From: Fidelibacterota bacterium
GTDB taxonomy: Bacteria; Fidelibacterota; Marinisomatia; Marinisomatales; JABMOV01
Length of the DNA stretch: 15,499 bases
Direction of reading: 5' to 3'
Assembly (NCBI GenBank): GCA_046861395.1
Contig: JBHHUC010000055.1
Location: forward strand, 1 to 15,499
Positions 1-15,203 of this stretch are shown piece by piece. Position 1 is the first letter of the stretch; every line of letters begins with the position of its first letter. A program made the position numbers and the translations under genes. The notes under the pieces were generated by a model. It was not told the origin of the DNA, ran no database searches, and was given only the letters and a program-made list of their open reading frames with translations.

Positions 1-32
1 AGGAGCCGACAGTTTGAATCTGCCCGGGGTCA
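1..32 (+). pseudogene. 3' part of a tRNA-like copy (variable region, T arm, acceptor 3' strand), cut by the window edge
   Basis: Identical to 145-176, the 3' end of the tRNA-like copy at 64-176. Confidence 0.75.
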
Positions 33-63
33 TATACCTGCTACTTTGAAAAATTGTTATACT

Positions 64-176
64 GACTCCGTAGCTTCCCGATGGGTCGGGAGTAGAGCAG
101 TGGCCTTTTCCCGCCTGCGTTATTACTTCGGCAGGTAAAAAGCCAGGAGCCGACAGTTTGAATCTGCCCGGGGTCA
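64..176 (+). pseudogene. tRNA-Lys-derived copy with two hairpin insertions (D-loop 76-91, anticodon loop 110-139)
   Basis: GACTCCG-TA-GCT[TCCCGATGGGTCGGGA]GTAGAGC-A-GTGGC-CTTTT[30 nt]AA-GCCAG-GAGCC-GACAG-TTTGAAT-CTGCC-CGGGGTC-A. The acceptor stem still pairs (one G-U). The T-loop reads TTT instead of TTC and the T stem has one mismatch. Confidence 0.85.
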
Positions 177-207
177 TATACCTGCTACTTTGAAAAATTA
201 TTATGCT

Positions 208-280
208 GACTCCGTAGCTCAGCTGGTAGAGCAGTGGCCTTTTAAGCCATTGGCCGTGCGTTCGAGTCGCACCGGAGTCA
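208..280 (+). tRNA. trnK: tRNA-Lys (anticodon UUU), 73 nt, CCA not encoded
   Basis: Full cloverleaf: acceptor GACTCCG/CGGAGTC, D stem GCTC/GAGC, anticodon stem GTGGC/GCCAT with loop CTTTTAA, T stem GTGCG/CGCAC with loop TTCGAGT, discriminator A280 followed by CCG. Confidence 0.97.
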
Positions 281-288
281 CCGACGAC

Positions 289-323
289 AAACCCCTTTTC
301 TCGACGAGAAATAGGGGTTTTTT
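289..323 (+). terminator. Rho-independent terminator after tRNA-Lys
   Basis: AAACCCCT-TTTCTC...GAGAAA-T-AGGGGTTT hairpin followed by a T run. Confidence 0.8.
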
Positions 324-436
324 CTTTACATTTCAACTTCGCCAGAAAATGCCAAAAAAGGCAGAAAAAACACAAATTGACAAAACACAGCACAATTAGT
401 GCACACTTTTCCCGGAGATCGTCGAGAACCCACTGT

Positions 437-518
437 CCTTTTCCCACCTGCGTTACCACTTCGGCGGGTAAAAAGCTGTTGGTCGTGCGCTTCCCGATAA
501 GCGGGACTGAAGTTGCAC
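437..518 (+). pseudogene. Degenerate 3'-half copy of tRNA-Lys (anticodon loop to T arm) with two hairpin insertions; possible att-site remnant
   Basis: CCTTTT[30 nt, 443-472]AAGCTGTTGGTCGTGCG-CT[TCCCGATAAGCGGGA]CTGAAGT-TGCAC versus intact CCTTTTAAGCCATTGGCCGTGCG-TTCGAGT-CGCAC. Confidence 0.75.
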
Positions 519-562
519 GTTAAAACCGAACCCTTATTACCATTACTTTGAGGGTCGGAACT

Positions 563-1264
563 CTAACCAAGCGTTTTCCCGTTTTTCAGCAGGGAAGCAC
601 TGATGATGATATCCACCCGCCGATTCAGTAGACGGTTACGGATCGACGTATTGGGTACCAGCGGTTTGAATTCCCCATAGCCTTTTATGGCAAACTGCCG
701 GGCCGGAAGGGATAAATCATTCTGCAGGATGCGCATTACACTCTGGGCACGGGCCGCGCTCAATTCCCAGTTATTCTCAAATTTGGAACCGCGAATCAAC
801 GGTGTATTATCGGTGTGACCTTCAATCAATATTTTCACCGACCATTCCAATCCCAGATTATTGAAAAATTGTATATCCCGTTCAAATTGATGCGACTGGT
901 TCGCATTCAGGATATTTAAATGTTTCAGGGCGCGGGAAATTTCCTTCAACTGGGATATCAGTGCTACACTCGGTTCCGCTTCGCCGGGCGGAAACATACC
1001 TTCACTCTGAATGGATATGTGCACTCCTTTTGTATCATGCCGCACGTCGATTCCGCGGATATTCTTTTCCGAAATTGACTGTTCCAGTTCCAGGGCGGAT
1101 TGCAGGAGTTGACTGTTGACCCATTTATGAATATTGGAAATCTTTCCACTTTCAGCAGACAGCATCATGATAAAGAATGTAATCAACAACGTTATCAGGT
1201 CACCGTAACTGATGAGCCAGTTGTTTTTCCGTTTCTCAGCCAGCGGGTTGATTAATTCCGGCAT
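563..1264 (-). CDS. motB: MotB/PomB-family stator subunit with OmpA-like peptidoglycan-binding domain (Asp-containing copy)
   Basis: N-terminal WLISYGDLITLLITFFIMM transmembrane motif; C-terminal GHTD, NWELSAARA, GYG and NRRVDI motifs. Confidence 0.9.
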   Translation of the reverse strand: MPELINPLAEKRKNNWLISYGDLITLLITFFIMMLSAESGKISNIHKWVNSQLLQSALELEQSISEKNIRGIDVRHDTKGVHISIQSEGMFPPGEAEPSVALISQLKEISRALKHLNILNANQSHQFERDIQFFNNLGLEWSVKILIEGHTDNTPLIRGSKFENNWELSAARAQSVMRILQNDLSLPARQFAIKGYGEFKPLVPNTSIRNRLLNRRVDIIISASLLKNGKTLG

Positions 1265-1952
1265 AGTCCTGTTGTGTTTCTAGTTGAAATTTGATATAGA
1301 TCTCCACCCGGCGGTTTTCCGAATAATTCTGCTCATCACGTTTGGGCAGAAATGGCCCGTAGCCGGCAATGGAAAAATTATCCTCCGGCAATCCTGTCTC
1401 GGCCTGAAATACGTTCATAAAGCTGTAGGACCGCGCCGTGCTCAGGTCCCAGTTGTCCTTGAATTTCCCGTCACGAACGGGCAAAATATCCGTGTGCCCC
1501 TGGATCAGTATTTCCAGTCGCAGGTTTTTATGCTGTTTCGCCAGGTTTTGTATGATCGCTTTATTGGCTTGCTGCAATGCTTCCAGGTCAAGATCTCTGA
1601 TGATGGCGGACAAGGTGCGGATATAGGGATAAAAATGGTTGGTGATATCACAGGAATTGGACATGAACATGGATTCACCACCGATGATGGAAGGTATGAT
1701 GATACGTACACCCAGCGATCCAGTATTTTCAACCTCCAGCCATTCAAGCCCATGGTCCGCTTTTTCCGCCAGTATGCGCTGGTACACAGTGGTGGTCAAA
1801 TTATCGGCAAATTCAAAAGTGGAACGCGCTTCATTTTCCTGCATTGTCACGATCAGAATGAAGAATGCCAGCACCGCCGTGAGTAATGAAGCGTAGGTGA
1901 TCATCCAGTTGTGATCACCATTTGAATGTGTGCTGGTCTTAATGATTCCCAT
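1236..1952 (-). CDS. motB: MotB-family paralog lacking the conserved transmembrane Asp
   Basis: WMITYASLLTAVLAFFILI transmembrane segment; GHTD, NWDLSTARS, GYG and NRRVEI motifs. I chose the ATG at 1952 (overlapping the motA end) rather than 2009, which would overlap motA by 71 nt. Confidence 0.85.
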   Translation of the reverse strand: MGIIKTSTHSNGDHNWMITYASLLTAVLAFFILIVTMQENEARSTFEFADNLTTTVYQRILAEKADHGLEWLEVENTGSLGVRIIIPSIIGGESMFMSNSCDITNHFYPYIRTLSAIIRDLDLEALQQANKAIIQNLAKQHKNLRLEILIQGHTDILPVRDGKFKDNWDLSTARSYSFMNVFQAETGLPEDNFSIAGYGPFLPKRDEQNYSENRRVEIYIKFQLETQQDYAGINQPAG

Positions 1953-2772
1953 TTTCCATTCGGTGCATTTCCTTGGCATTCTTATCCAGGAATGTGAGCA
2001 ATTTTTCACTCATTTTTACATGGTGTTCCTTCAGATGGATGCTTTGAATGCCCATGATCATCATTTCGTTTTGATATATTTCTTCCTCCGTTCTGATTTT
2101 CAATTTCCCGGCAATGGGATTAAAGACCAGATTGGATAACAAAACGCCGTAAAAGGTCGTAACCAGTGAAACACCCATCCCCGCCAGGAGGTGATTCATG
2201 GAATTCTGCATTTGCATGGAATACCCGTTTGCCGGTCCGCCATTCGATTGTGAGGTCATCATGAGGATGAGTCCCATGACTGTACCCAGGAGACCAAAGG
2301 CCGGTGCATACGTTCCCATATTTTCAAACATTTTCTGTCCCACCGCATGACGCCGCGTCATGTGATTGATTTCATTCTGGAGATATTGGTACAATTTTGC
2401 CCCGTCCTTTTCAATGATCATGTATTGCAACCCGTTCCGCAGGAATTTATTGTCGAGGGTGGGAATTATTTTTTCCAGCTCCATGACACCTTTCTTGCGA
2501 TAGGCGATATTGATATCAATCAATTTGTTTATAATATCTTTTTCGTTTACGTCAACCTGTCGCCGGAAGGTCTTTCCAGCCACGTGCAGAAGCCGAAATA
2601 TTTGTTTCAGCGGATAGTTGATGAGGGTTGCCGCGATGGTGCCGCCCAGCACGATGGCAATCCCCTGATAATTTAAAAATGTTTTCGGTATGGTGTGGGT
2701 CACCCCATCCACCATGCCATACATGATCAAACCCAATCCAACAATGAAACCAATTATTGTTGCTGCATCCAT
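1939..2772 (-). CDS. motA: MotA/PomA-family stator subunit
   Basis: Motifs MDxATIIG, IVLGGT, RKKGVMELE, YAPAFGLLGTVMGLI and LVTTFYG...NPIAGKL; four hydrophobic segments. Confidence 0.93.
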   Translation of the reverse strand: MDAATIIGFIVGLGLIMYGMVDGVTHTIPKTFLNYQGIAIVLGGTIAATLINYPLKQIFRLLHVAGKTFRRQVDVNEKDIINKLIDINIAYRKKGVMELEKIIPTLDNKFLRNGLQYMIIEKDGAKLYQYLQNEINHMTRRHAVGQKMFENMGTYAPAFGLLGTVMGLILMMTSQSNGGPANGYSMQMQNSMNHLLAGMGVSLVTTFYGVLLSNLVFNPIAGKLKIRTEEEIYQNEMMIMGIQSIHLKEHHVKMSEKLLTFLDKNAKEMHRMENGNH

Positions 2773-7012: not shown

Positions 7013-7271
7013 ACGTTAGGAATGTGGTCTTACCTCCGGTTTTGTCCGGCTGTCTTCCGGACTGTAAAAGAATCTTGTGAATTTCAGTTTCCAGTAATTT
7101 AAAACTTTTTTTCCTGCAGAACGACAGTTTTAACGAATGTGAAAATTGTGGTCGGCTATCCATAACAACCAGATTGATCCGGATTTCAATCATAACGCGA
7201 ATATGTGTCGTCCTGGCGATATTTTATGAATTCGGTATGTCCTAAAATTGCCCTTAGCTTGGGAGGGTTTC

Positions 7272-7655
7272 ATGGATCGACGCACATTTCTGGGGAAAAT
7301 CCCGGGTCTGACGGTCTTGCCTTTGGTCATATACAGCGTAGGCTGTGAGGATACGGCGGATTCATACGCGGCGGGAGACACGGATTCCGGTACCACCGAC
7401 TCGTTCCGCATAATATCGTCCACCGACAGCGGCCATTACCATTCCGTAGCAATTCAATATGCCCACATTACCACCGTCCCGTCTTCCAACCAGACCCTGA
7501 CCACCTCATCCGCGAACAGCCATTCCCATACCTTGACCCTAACTCCTGCCGATTACACGGCATTGCAAAACGGTGAAACCATCCTGAAAACATCATCAAC
7601 GGATGGCGGCCATACGCATTCTTTTCGTATCATGGTCCCCGATGGCTCCATGTAG
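7272..7655 (+). CDS. Putative Tat-exported lipoprotein with three HxH motifs (possible metal-binding protein)
   Basis: GGGAGG ribosome-binding site before ATG 7272; MDRRTFL twin-arginine motif; hydrophobic stretch ending in SVGC lipobox-like motif; GHYHS, SHSHT and GHTHS repeats. Confidence 0.8.
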   Translation: MDRRTFLGKIPGLTVLPLVIYSVGCEDTADSYAAGDTDSGTTDSFRIISSTDSGHYHSVAIQYAHITTVPSSNQTLTTSSANSHSHTLTLTPADYTALQNGETILKTSSTDGGHTHSFRIMVPDGSM

Positions 7656-7790: not shown

Positions 7791-9062
7791 ATGTCCAAAT
7801 ACATGTTTACACTTACAGTCCTGGTTCTTATTAGTGTGGCCCCGGCTCAGGATTGTATCACCTGTCACCGGGATATCACACCCGGAGTTGTCACCGACTG
7901 GGAAATCAGTCGCCATTCCGAAGAAGATGTGACCTGTGATGCTTGCCATGGCAGCAACCATCTTTCGGCAGCGGACGTGGATAAAGTTGAATTACCCACA
8001 CCGGAGACCTGTGCTTCCTGCCACGATCAACAGGTGGAACAATTCATGGCCGGGAAACATGCCCTGGCTTGGGCCGCCCTTAAAGCGATGCCCACTACCC
8101 ACTGGGCCCCCATGGAACTAGTCGACGGCCAGAAAGGCTGTGGCGGTTGTCATAAGGTGGGAATTAAGTCTGAAGCAGAAATCACTACGTTAAAGAACGA
8201 CGGTCACAAATTCGGGAATGCATCCTGCGATGCCTGCCATACCCGTCATACTTTTTCCAAGCAAGAAGCACAGCAGCCACAGGCCTGTCAAACCTGTCAC
8301 ATGGGATTTGATCATCCCCAATGGGAAATGTGGTCTGCATCCAAACACGGCGTGCGTTACCTGCTGAAACAGACCGGTGTTTTACCGGAAAACACCACCG
8401 CTCCCTCTTGCCAGACCTGTCATATGCCCGACGGGAATCATGAAGTGCGCACAGCCTGGGGCTTCCTGGCGGTGCGGACCAATGGCCTGGCACCCTATCC
8501 CGGCGAAGATGAGGAATGGTGGGCCGACCGTGTCGCCATCCTGCAGGCCCTGGGTGTATTGGATCCGGAAGGAAATCCAACTCCCCGGCTCGATGTTGTC
8601 GCACAGGCCGATGTCGCCCGCTTATCGGCTGAAGCGTTTGATAAGGAGCGGAATAAGATGATCGCAGTCTGCAGTGATTGCCATTCGGAAAATTTCGCTA
8701 AAGGTGAACTGGAAAAAGTGGATAACTTGATTCGGGAAGGCGATGCGCTACTGGCGGAAGCCATTCGTGTGGTGGCTGGATTGTATGAAGACGGGATCCT
8801 GGAAAAACCGGAAAGTTATGTCAGTAATTTCCCCGACCTCCTCACCTTCCACGATGCCCCCACACCCATCGAACAACAACTGTTCGTCATGCATCTGAAA
8901 CATCGCATGCGTCTCTTCCAAGGTGCGTTCCACGCCAATCCCGATTATGCCCTTTGGTACGGCTGGAGTGAAATGATACAGGATTTGGCAGAAATCAAAG
9001 AAAAAGCCGAAGACCTGAGAGAAAAACACAAACCCCAGAAGAGAGGATTCTTCCGGAATTAA
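7791..9062 (+). CDS. Octaheme cytochrome c, hydroxylamine oxidoreductase (HAO)-like family
   Basis: GGAGG ribosome-binding site; Sec signal peptide; 8 CxxCH motifs (CITCH, CDACH, CASCH, CGGCH, CDACH, CQTCH, CQTCH, CSDCH); family-type motifs CHTRHTFS, CHMGFDHPQWE, SKHG and FHANPDY. Confidence 0.92.
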   Translation: MSKYMFTLTVLVLISVAPAQDCITCHRDITPGVVTDWEISRHSEEDVTCDACHGSNHLSAADVDKVELPTPETCASCHDQQVEQFMAGKHALAWAALKAMPTTHWAPMELVDGQKGCGGCHKVGIKSEAEITTLKNDGHKFGNASCDACHTRHTFSKQEAQQPQACQTCHMGFDHPQWEMWSASKHGVRYLLKQTGVLPENTTAPSCQTCHMPDGNHEVRTAWGFLAVRTNGLAPYPGEDEEWWADRVAILQALGVLDPEGNPTPRLDVVAQADVARLSAEAFDKERNKMIAVCSDCHSENFAKGELEKVDNLIREGDALLAEAIRVVAGLYEDGILEKPESYVSNFPDLLTFHDAPTPIEQQLFVMHLKHRMRLFQGAFHANPDYALWYGWSEMIQDLAEIKEKAEDLREKHKPQKRGFFRN

Positions 9063-13739: not shown

Positions 13740-15203
13740 TTAATGAATTGAAAGGAGGTAATCATTCAACTCACCAAGTGTTTTTGCAGGAGCCACTGTC
13801 CCACCGCCCCCGTTTGCATCGGCATGACAGCCGTAACAGACATTGGCAACGGACAGCTTTGTATGGTCATTATCGTCCAGCCGCATTGTTTTTCCATCAT
13901 CGGAATACATGTTCCAGGATGTATCCGCCGCAATGGCAAAGGTATGGCTGTGAATATCGCCCTGATATCCAGCCACGGTCTGAACTGCAGATTTCGCTGT
14001 TTTCGCCATGTGACAGCTGGTGCAGGATACCGCATCATGGGGTGTATTGATCGATACTCCACCGTGACAGGTCGTACATTCTTCAATTATACCGTCGCCG
14101 TCCCAGATGACCCGTTTGTGTGGGTCATGGCACGTGGAACAATTCATACCGGCATTTTCATAATGATTGGTATGAATGAATTCATCATATTGTTCATGGT
14201 GTTTGGTGAATCCGCTGCTAACAGCCACAGAATGATCTGAATTGCGGTAATGGCATTGACCACATAATTCCGTTACTTCATCCCCGGCCGGCAGATCAAT
14301 ATACCCCGCACCCATGCTTTCCACATGTTTACTGCCTTGACCATGGCACCGTTCACATTGGACACCACCATAAGCAAAGGTTCCATAGACATCGGGTAGC
14401 CATTCTCCGGTTTCAGTAGCACCGGTCGTATGGCAACGGAAACAACCGTAGTTGTATTCTTTTACATCGGTGGTATGATAATCGACCCAACCCCAGTCTG
14501 TTCCACTAAAGAAGTTGTACTGGTTCTGCCCCCCACCGGTATTGATAACACTGTTGGCAGTCCCAACAATATTTCCAGTGTTATCCACAAAGCGGGCTTT
14601 CCAGCCGAAACCGCCGATTACACCCAAAATGTCATTCCAGCTTGATGCTCCAGTAGGAAGATTCAACACGCGGCTTTCCTCAACGAAGTTGGGGTAAGAA
14701 GGCGCTTCATTTCCGTCGGAGAAGTTGAATTTGTATGGATGACCGGATTCGATAAATTCGGCATATTGTTCAGCGTGGCACTGTTTGCAGGTAGACGAAC
14801 CAACGAAATGAAATTCCGGTTGATCAGCGGAACTGATGGTCACTCCATCGCTGGCTGATGTTGACAAATCGCCGTCGCTGACACTTACTTTGAAGATGGC
14901 AGAGGCCGCCACGGCAAAATTTGCCACCCATTGGACCGAAGCTTCGCTCGTGGACAGAAATTGTCCCAGATCGTTGTTTTCCGACCAGCTGTAAATCAGT
15001 AAATCATCATCCGGATCTTCTGCGACAACCGTGAGTGTTAACGTATCACCAAAATTGAAGCTGTTGCCATCAATCATGAGTGATGTAATCACCGGGCTGG
15101 TGTTACTGTCACTGGTTGTATTGTCGCATCCCCCGCACAGGATGATGATTATACCAAGCAATAAGTAGGCACTTGTTTTATATGCTTTCATCATAATCTC
15201 CAT
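13740..15203 (-). CDS. Octaheme cytochrome c lipoprotein with N-terminal Ig/PKD-like region
   Basis: LCGGC lipobox-like motif; NTSPVI...AEDPDDDLLIYSW...VSVSDG beta-rich region; 8 CxxCH motifs (CKQCH, CFRCH, CERCH, CGQCH, CSTCH, CTTCH, CTSCH, CYGCH). The true start may be ATG 15191 (GGAG upstream). Confidence 0.92.
   Translation of the reverse strand: MEIMMKAYKTSAYLLLGIIIILCGGCDNTTSDSNTSPVITSLMIDGNSFNFGDTLTLTVVAEDPDDDLLIYSWSENNDLGQFLSTSEASVQWVANFAVAASAIFKVSVSDGDLSTSASDGVTISSADQPEFHFVGSSTCKQCHAEQYAEFIESGHPYKFNFSDGNEAPSYPNFVEESRVLNLPTGASSWNDILGVIGGFGWKARFVDNTGNIVGTANSVINTGGGQNQYNFFSGTDWGWVDYHTTDVKEYNYGCFRCHTTGATETGEWLPDVYGTFAYGGVQCERCHGQGSKHVESMGAGYIDLPAGDEVTELCGQCHYRNSDHSVAVSSGFTKHHEQYDEFIHTNHYENAGMNCSTCHDPHKRVIWDGDGIIEECTTCHGGVSINTPHDAVSCTSCHMAKTAKSAVQTVAGYQGDIHSHTFAIAADTSWNMYSDDGKTMRLDDNDHTKLSVANVCYGCHADANGGGGTVAPAKTLGELNDYLLSIH

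Follow-up and report, generated by a model that had tools for sequence, protein, structure and literature searches.

A 30-nucleotide hairpin repeat, probably mobile DNA, in two defective tRNA-Lys copies of a Fidelibacterota genome

At the start of contig C109 of a Fidelibacterota genome (2.37 Mb, 94% complete), an intact tRNA-Lys gene stands between two decayed pieces of tRNA-Lys, each of which is interrupted in its anticodon loop by nearly the same 30-nt hairpin. What are these inserts, by what route did two of them come to occupy one position in two different hosts, and does the interrupted arrangement serve any function of its own? A preliminary description had offered two answers, namely, a tiny site-preferring mobile hairpin, possibly moved by an HUH/RAYT-type transposase, or an element resembling a mini-intron. 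Here, these answers and several others are weighed against the locus, the rest of the genome, related genomes, and metagenome and viral sequences. The window denotes the whole 15,499-nt stretch that was analyzed, and positions are counted from its first letter.

Two defective hosts around an intact tRNA-Lys gene

The locus is made up of the following features.

1-63, plus strand: 3′ portion of another dead tandem unit with its spacer, continuing the end of contig C7; 97% identical to 145-207
64-176, plus strand: host 1, a full-length decayed tRNA-Lys copy, by alignment to 208-280
76-91, no strand assigned: 16-nt palindrome TCCCGA-N-TCGGGA in place of the host 1 D-loop, of a second hairpin family
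110-139, plus strand: hairpin element copy 1, with a 6-bp stem, a 3x3 internal loop, a short inner stem-loop, and a TAAA tail
177-207, plus strand: 31-nt spacer of the tandem unit, doubling as the leader of the intact gene
208-282, plus strand: intact, insert-free tRNA-Lys(TTT) between the hosts (ARAGORN; Rfam, 72.5 bits)
283-442, plus strand: non-coding stretch resembling an island arm, apparently part of an att-type junction with both arms and no cargo
443-472, plus strand: hairpin element copy 2, within the anticodon-loop core of the att-type junction
473-525, plus strand: host 2, a decayed tRNA-Lys 3′ fragment lacking the 5′ half
492-506, no strand assigned: TCCCGA-type palindrome where host 2 would have its T-loop

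Alignment with the intact gene at 208-282 places the 30-nt insert of both hosts at exactly the same point, CTTTT^AAGC, between positions 36 and 37 in the anticodon loop of tRNA-Lys(TTT), as the preliminary description had claimed. The two copies agree at 26 of 30 positions, and all four differences are transitions; under uniform base composition, such a match would arise by chance with a probability of 2e-12 per pair and 5e-4 for all pairs in the window. The CCCGCC/GGCGGG stem that had been described is perfect in their consensus, whereas each actual copy contains one mismatch. Folded alone, neither copy is better than its shuffles (DNA z −1.08 and +0.10).

The 5′ half of host 1 is that of the intact gene, except for the palindrome that has replaced its D-loop, while its 3′ half has diverged, with a G27-G43 mismatch, a mismatch in the T-stem, and an altered T-loop. 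The T-arm and acceptor strand at 145-176 are unlike those of the intact gene, and a search of relatives, viral contigs, and phages returned no match that could be the source of this half. The last 55 nt of contig C7 are the first 55 nt of the window, and host 1 is therefore one unit of a tandem array of dead 144-nt units, at least two of which stand before the intact tRNA-Lys. At the C7 end, the host 1 unit sits behind the native upstream region, and a third copy of the element is found there, identical to 110-139 at 30 of 30 positions. The intact gene is the sole tRNA-Lys(TTT) detected by ARAGORN in the genome.

Host 2 is of another kind, and the earlier claim that the two hosts have different 3′ halves is upheld by alignment to the intact gene. 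The stretch at 283-442 resembles DNA that follows tRNA genes in relatives, as well as both sides of another Lys att remnant on contig C83. Its last part, the left flank of host 2 at 415-442, is identical at 27 of 28 nt to a junction in a relative (G028, L208), which is empty and runs straight into the anticodon-loop bases without an insert. The anticodon loop is one of three crossover subsites used by tyrosine-integrase islands, as described for Islander (PMC4383910), and host 2, a displaced tRNA 3′ fragment that starts at the anticodon loop, has the form of the att remnants such islands leave. It would represent a cargo-less island junction of this anticodon-loop type, differing from island remnants in that its arms hold neither integrase nor cargo and in that hairpins occupy its crossover core and T-loop. 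No integrase gene was found on C109, and C83 has a weak match close to its own Lys remnant. Because the flanks of host 1 are those of the intact gene and the left flank of host 2 is an island arm, the two hosts differ in origin.

Both hosts are defective as genes. Host 1 receives no call from ARAGORN or Rfam and, once the insert is removed, is called as a pseudogene at the relaxed threshold only; host 2 receives no tRNA call after the same removal. Both also hold a second, different palindrome (76-91 and 492-506), absent from the preliminary description. The same palindrome replaces the D-loop in dead tRNA arrays of relatives and the T-loop in their att remnants.

Could the arrangement be an artefact of assembly at a contig end? 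It falls within the first 500 nt of the contig, 55 nt overlap with another contig, and the tandem units can be counted only as at least two. Copy 2, however, lies in unique sequence, the copies differ at four positions, and the same architecture is found mid-contig in relatives, which together make an artefact very improbable.

That the insert is a mini-intron, spliced out to yield a second working tRNA-Lys, accounts for its placement. Precise removal does restore a 7-nt Lys anticodon loop, as had been foreseen, and the anticodon loop is a favored site of tRNA introns, both the self-splicing ribozymes that form the bacterial class and the archaeal and eukaryotic BHB introns (PMC4390854). The splicing machinery and the hosts speak against it. 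In the genome, neither the tRNA intron endonuclease (PF01974) nor RtcB (PF01139) has a match, whereas the controls were detected; Rfam matches nothing at the locus but the intact tRNA, and no intron model. A length of 30 nt is too short for a group I or II ribozyme core. After removal, host 1 stays below the default threshold and keeps its D-loop palindrome, host 2 still has no 5′ half, an intact tRNA-Lys adjoins both, and the same element is found in 5S copies, antisense T-arms, and ORFs. We regard splicing as extremely improbable, and this earlier proposal is not supported.

A different role has been considered, in which the dead copies would be retained because their transcripts, with the anticodon masked by the insert, act as decoys or regulators. 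Pairing between the A-run of the insert and the UUUU of the anticodon loop, suggested in the preliminary description, is indeed predicted by folding, and the dead units probably share a transcript with the intact gene, since the native upstream region precedes the first unit on C7. The hosts, however, are non-viable, decaying tRNAs. The pairing of the TAAA tail with the U-run is incidental, because TAAA is the standard tail of the family at all sites. By pattern, the Lys-loop placement is absent from 400 other genomes of the phylum and, in a further search, from 61, and a search of 120 genomes gave one match (G007:C15) whose 3′ arm is not visible in the matched string, although these patterns are insensitive, since they missed a real case in the relative G002. 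A retained regulatory function thus appears highly improbable. No sigma-70-type promoter was found in 1-700 of the window. This locus is a relic, and nothing suggests that it has any function in itself.

Elsewhere, the window carries a motA-like gene and, after it, two motB-like ones (563-2772, minus strand) and two multi-heme cytochrome c genes (7791-9062, plus strand; 13740-15203, minus strand), one of which has a weak MtrC/MtrF domain match. A 135-aa ORF (7248-7655, plus strand), which begins in a twin-arginine-like manner and contains repeated His-x-His motifs, has no Pfam match.

A dispersed family of 30-nt hairpins

A genome scan allowing up to six mismatches returned three matches to the variant, all at the tRNA-Lys locus; the genome has no copy of this exact variant elsewhere. 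Copies are few by any measure, with three of the variant and about 12 related ones by a looser rule. Beyond the genome, the picture is that of a family, with the consensus CCYRCC-TRCG-N6-CTTCG-GYRGG-TAAA, folding as described for copy 1. With a relaxed pattern, 10 of the 200 other genomes searched in the order have the unit, 16 times in all, against none in the reversed control, and the full unit with its TAAA tail is present in at least 121 metagenome stretches and one viral stretch; the strict family rule alone is not specific (six matches in the genome against three in its reverse). In related copies the tail is CAGG. The exact variant has no match in viral contigs. Of 31 matches to a 19-nt core in a scan of GTDB, 30 have no outer stem and were dismissed as chance; an Omnitrophota MAG has, between two genes, a near-identical variant that shares the inner loop of copy 1 (L031).

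The sample on which the family is characterized comprises, among the matches listed, 114 unique flank pairs, 43 distinct elements, and 71 site families. Exact gains of 30 nt relative to an empty copy within one locus are seen in a spare 5S rRNA piece (L125), a dead tRNA-Cys copy (L183), and the antisense T-arms of dead tRNA-Asn copies (L062, L070); these clear filled and empty pairs were read by eye, automatic alignment being without success at most of 15 loci. A target duplication of 2 nt or more is absent at 105 of the 114 sites listed, which sets the element apart from MITEs and classical transposons. The stem is supported by covariation. At the outer pair 3/24, the 43 elements listed have C-G in 31, T-A in eight, and other combinations in four (p 1e-5), and the first and last bases of the N6 stretch, unconstrained by the pattern, pair in 19 of 25 distinct loops among the listed matches against 12.7 when shuffled (p 0.00075); at pair 4/23, covariation among the distinct elements listed is weak (p 0.10).

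A family with fixed ends, no target duplication, and a covarying stem, sitting here in defective hosts, bears out the earlier proposal of a tiny, mobile, REP-like hairpin, given the same ends at many unrelated sites and the clean filled and empty pairs. The inserts are most probably copies of a widespread 30-nt hairpin repeat, likely a non-autonomous form of mobile DNA, in two dead pieces of tRNA-Lys(TTT). As a dispersed, imperfect palindrome of 20-40 nt with a covarying stem, the element answers to a broad definition of REP-like repeats in all but high copy number.

How the locus came to hold two copies is a separate matter. There may have been one old insertion, from which gene conversion or a duplication supplied the second host, whether or not the family still moves elsewhere. 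The copies lie 333 nt apart and share CCTTTT/AAGC flanks, no other copy of the variant exists in the genome, and the C7 copy is a plain tandem duplicate. Both copies have the inner loop TTAYYA, and because this loop is absent among the 25 distinct metagenome loops listed, one copy probably derives from the other. The hosts, however, share no derived flank changes, which excludes duplication of a whole host and leaves short-tract copying alone; moreover, the island arm that flanks host 2 is empty in G028, and the same position has been taken by another sub-type in G002. We consider a single insertion less likely than not; the likelihoods attached here to the alternatives and to the mobile-repeat explanation are not mutually exclusive. 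With a rare inner loop shared between hosts of different origin, it is likely that the element hopped, or was copied as a short tract, between the two hosts of this locus; these two routes are indistinguishable here.

As to where the elements land, the preliminary description had called them site-preferring, and this holds in a modified sense. The preference is for loops and stem-loop junctions of spare tRNA and 5S copies, some sites being reused, rather than for position 36/37 of tRNA-Lys. The G002 case, an att position at Lys 36/37 filled by the other sub-type (L203), is one such reuse. In L183, two dead tRNA-Cys copies that precede an intact gene have different variants at the same site, a close parallel to the tRNA-Lys locus here. 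Heptamer-repeat tracts account for 34 of the 114 sites listed, and at 12 loci listed the element lies within a long open frame, one of them a class I tRNA-synthetase frame; members occur in frame in ORFs as well as in 5S rRNA copies and antisense to T-arms. An intact tRNA is near the element at nine of 122 metagenome or viral loci among the matches listed. In the genome, none of 39 intact tRNA and tmRNA genes contains either hairpin motif, and of 29 TCCCGA-type palindromes, 10 have such a gene no more than 600 nt away, although the DNA that close to these genes makes up 1.5% of the genome. In the dead tRNA arrays of relatives, palindromes stand in place of D-, anticodon-, and T-loops.

These distributions point to a mechanism in which the element would insert into single-stranded DNA hairpins such as those formed by the loops of tRNA genes, and inserts would persist only in dispensable host copies or in tolerant loops or helices; taken jointly, we judge these two steps to be probable. 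At host 2, the insert would also interrupt the att junction within its 7-nt crossover core.

Several further occurrences were observed. Relatives carry up to about 10 dead tRNA fragments with the same loop palindrome beside an intact gene (L010, L210, L211, L216, L217, L218). The sole RNase P RNA gene (G000:C60:21982-22523; L401:1501-2042, minus strand) measures 542 nt against a 367-position model, with about 55 extra nt containing two related hairpins in helix P12 and a 109-nt unmodeled stretch downstream. The 16-nt palindrome of 76-91 recurs at G000:C25:35269-35284, in frame and after AGCT as in the tRNA D-arm, within an ORF which we take to be IS-transposase-like and which holds another family hairpin further upstream. 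A recurrent host sequence carries the element at one position in nine loci (L084, L087, L088, L089, L093, L124, L135, L186, L187), with an empty copy in L135; eight of the nine were scanned with Rfam, which matched nothing at the site. Finally, at two tRNA 3′ ends (L102:601-630 and G000:C68:3300-3360), the 5′ arm of the element is identical to the last tRNA bases and is repeated after the tail, suggesting that its arms may be templated from the target.

Candidate enzymes for movement

If the hairpin moves, what moves it? A REP mobilized by an HUH transposase of the RAYT or IS200 type, now lost from the genome or unassembled, would have much in common with it: an imperfect hairpin with a 4-nt tail and no target duplication resembles the tagged REPs (PMC3733652), Y1_Tnp matches occur in 30 of 60 relatives, including all three of the same family, and the assembly is 94% complete. 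The genome itself, however, has no Y1_Tnp match, and hence no gene of the kind, flanked by the motif, that the preliminary description had suggested looking for. Hairpins of either family lie near just two of 20 Y1 genes in relatives, seven genomes with at least five TCCCGA palindromes have no Y1 match, and the tails are TAAA or CAGG, not GTAG or CGTC. Movement by such an enzyme is, in our assessment, unlikely.

Another class of small enzymes stands closer to the hairpins. Of eight GIY-YIG matches in the genome, seven are in small frames, all beside tRNA or tmRNA genes or their dead copies; none lies on C109 or C7, and six of the small proteins were compared with NCBIfam, where no family scored above its cut-off. 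On contigs C1, C4, C31, C66, C68, and C77, tandem cassettes join a tRNA or tmRNA 3′ fragment to an 80-88-aa GIY-YIG gene; the cassettes are mostly collapsed at contig ends, and hairpin inserts are present in their duplicated fragments.

In relatives, a hairpin of either family is found 500 nt or less from 10 of 20 GIY-YIG genes, compared with two of 20 Y1 genes (p 0.014), and tRNAs are near 15 of 20 against one of 20, both sets of 20 being hand-picked from the top of the match lists. Across 61 genomes, the TCCCGA-palindrome count correlates with that of GIY-YIG genes (rho 0.80) and of Y1 genes (0.68), with partial correlations of 0.56 and 0.21 and correlations over 16 family means of 0.77 and 0.69, respectively. 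This strong correlation with GIY-YIG genes, obtained from genomes that are non-independent kin, belongs to the TCCCGA palindrome and not to the 30-nt family, which taken alone is beside three of 20 GIY-YIG and one of 20 Y1 genes (p 0.6) and has a GIY-YIG gene within 300-600 nt at two of 122 loci among the matches listed. No single partner family emerged by Pfam near the metagenome copies (138 of 143 long frames at loci L079-L159, the remaining five being near-duplicates). Their neighbors are mixed housekeeping, toxin–antitoxin, and ORF6N genes, with one GIY-YIG.

On this correlative evidence, the seven small GIY-YIG genes are a likelier partner than an HUH/RAYT enzyme. In the mechanism we propose, small single-domain GIY-YIG nucleases flanking tRNA genes in this lineage would recognize or cut at the hairpin, and host repair would paste in a copy; to this step we give roughly even chances. 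A broader reading, which we advance only tentatively and regard as rather doubtful, is that hairpins of 16-40 nt with a 4-nt tail constitute an undescribed, cross-phylum, minimal form of mobile DNA, pasted by GIY-YIG nucleases of 80-90 residues with no transposase. Such hairpins would have exact ends and produce no duplication, would target the single-stranded stem-loops of tRNA, 5S, RNase P, and att cores, and would thereby kill spare tRNA copies and lock the att sites of islands.

Relation to known repeats and implications

A protein–repeat pairing of this general kind is available for comparison. Ssn is a single-domain GIY-YIG nuclease that cuts single-stranded DNA beside its NTS/SRM hairpin, and a mobile-element origin of the repeats is raised in the same paper (Chenal et al., 2025, PMC11893778), which likewise does not demonstrate movement by the nuclease. 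Like the SRM, the element is an oriented imperfect hairpin of about 30 nt with a non-palindromic tail, and small single-domain GIY-YIG proteins are encoded in the same genomes; unlike it, neither copy matches the degenerate SRM motif of PMC11893778 on either strand. The GIY-YIG proteins of the genome share 29-38% identity with three NTS-flanked proteins that group on a separate branch (support 100/99, in a midpoint-rooted tree with these three as the only proxies for the cd10448 clade), and, unlike Ssn, the small ones match UPF0213 structures and sit at tRNA genes.

The GTAG- and CGTC-tagged REPs are imperfect palindromes of 20-40 nt with an unpaired 4-nt tag, and the likeness extends to complementary stem variants, some in-frame copies, and some families inserted into palindromes (Di Nocera et al., 2013, PMC3733652). 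The element differs in its 3′ tag of TAAA or CAGG, its low copy number, its concentration in spare copies of structural RNAs, and the lack of a RAYT/Y1 gene in the genome and, mostly, beside it (one of 20 Y1 genes). The element works like the Ssn/SRM or the REP pairing, yet is a member of neither. The Rickettsia palindromic elements are likewise small palindromic inserts that keep the reading frame of protein genes, also occur in structural RNAs, and have no known dedicated transposase (PMC3733652).

From these and from the cyanobacterial repeats the element differs in its sequence, its presence in several phyla, and its link to GIY-YIG genes beside tRNAs. The very small dispersed repeats of cyanobacteria, a subject attributed to Elhai and colleagues in 2008, are reportedly palindromic and tolerated both within structural RNAs and, in frame, within protein genes; to our knowledge, they have no dedicated transposase. 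The literature covered, which was limited to open papers, yielded no description of the 30-nt family, which is likely an undescribed variant of the REP-like mobile hairpins with a candidate enzyme.

Among the smallest repeats of bacteria (REP-like, RPE, SRM), the origin and spread of all families without a RAYT still call for an explanation. With its exact filled and empty sites, defined ends, covarying structure, and few candidate enzymes within a single genome, the present family makes mobilization testable in vitro. It also carries a warning for annotators, as bacterial tRNAs labeled "intron-containing" or "split" in such genomes are often dead copies.
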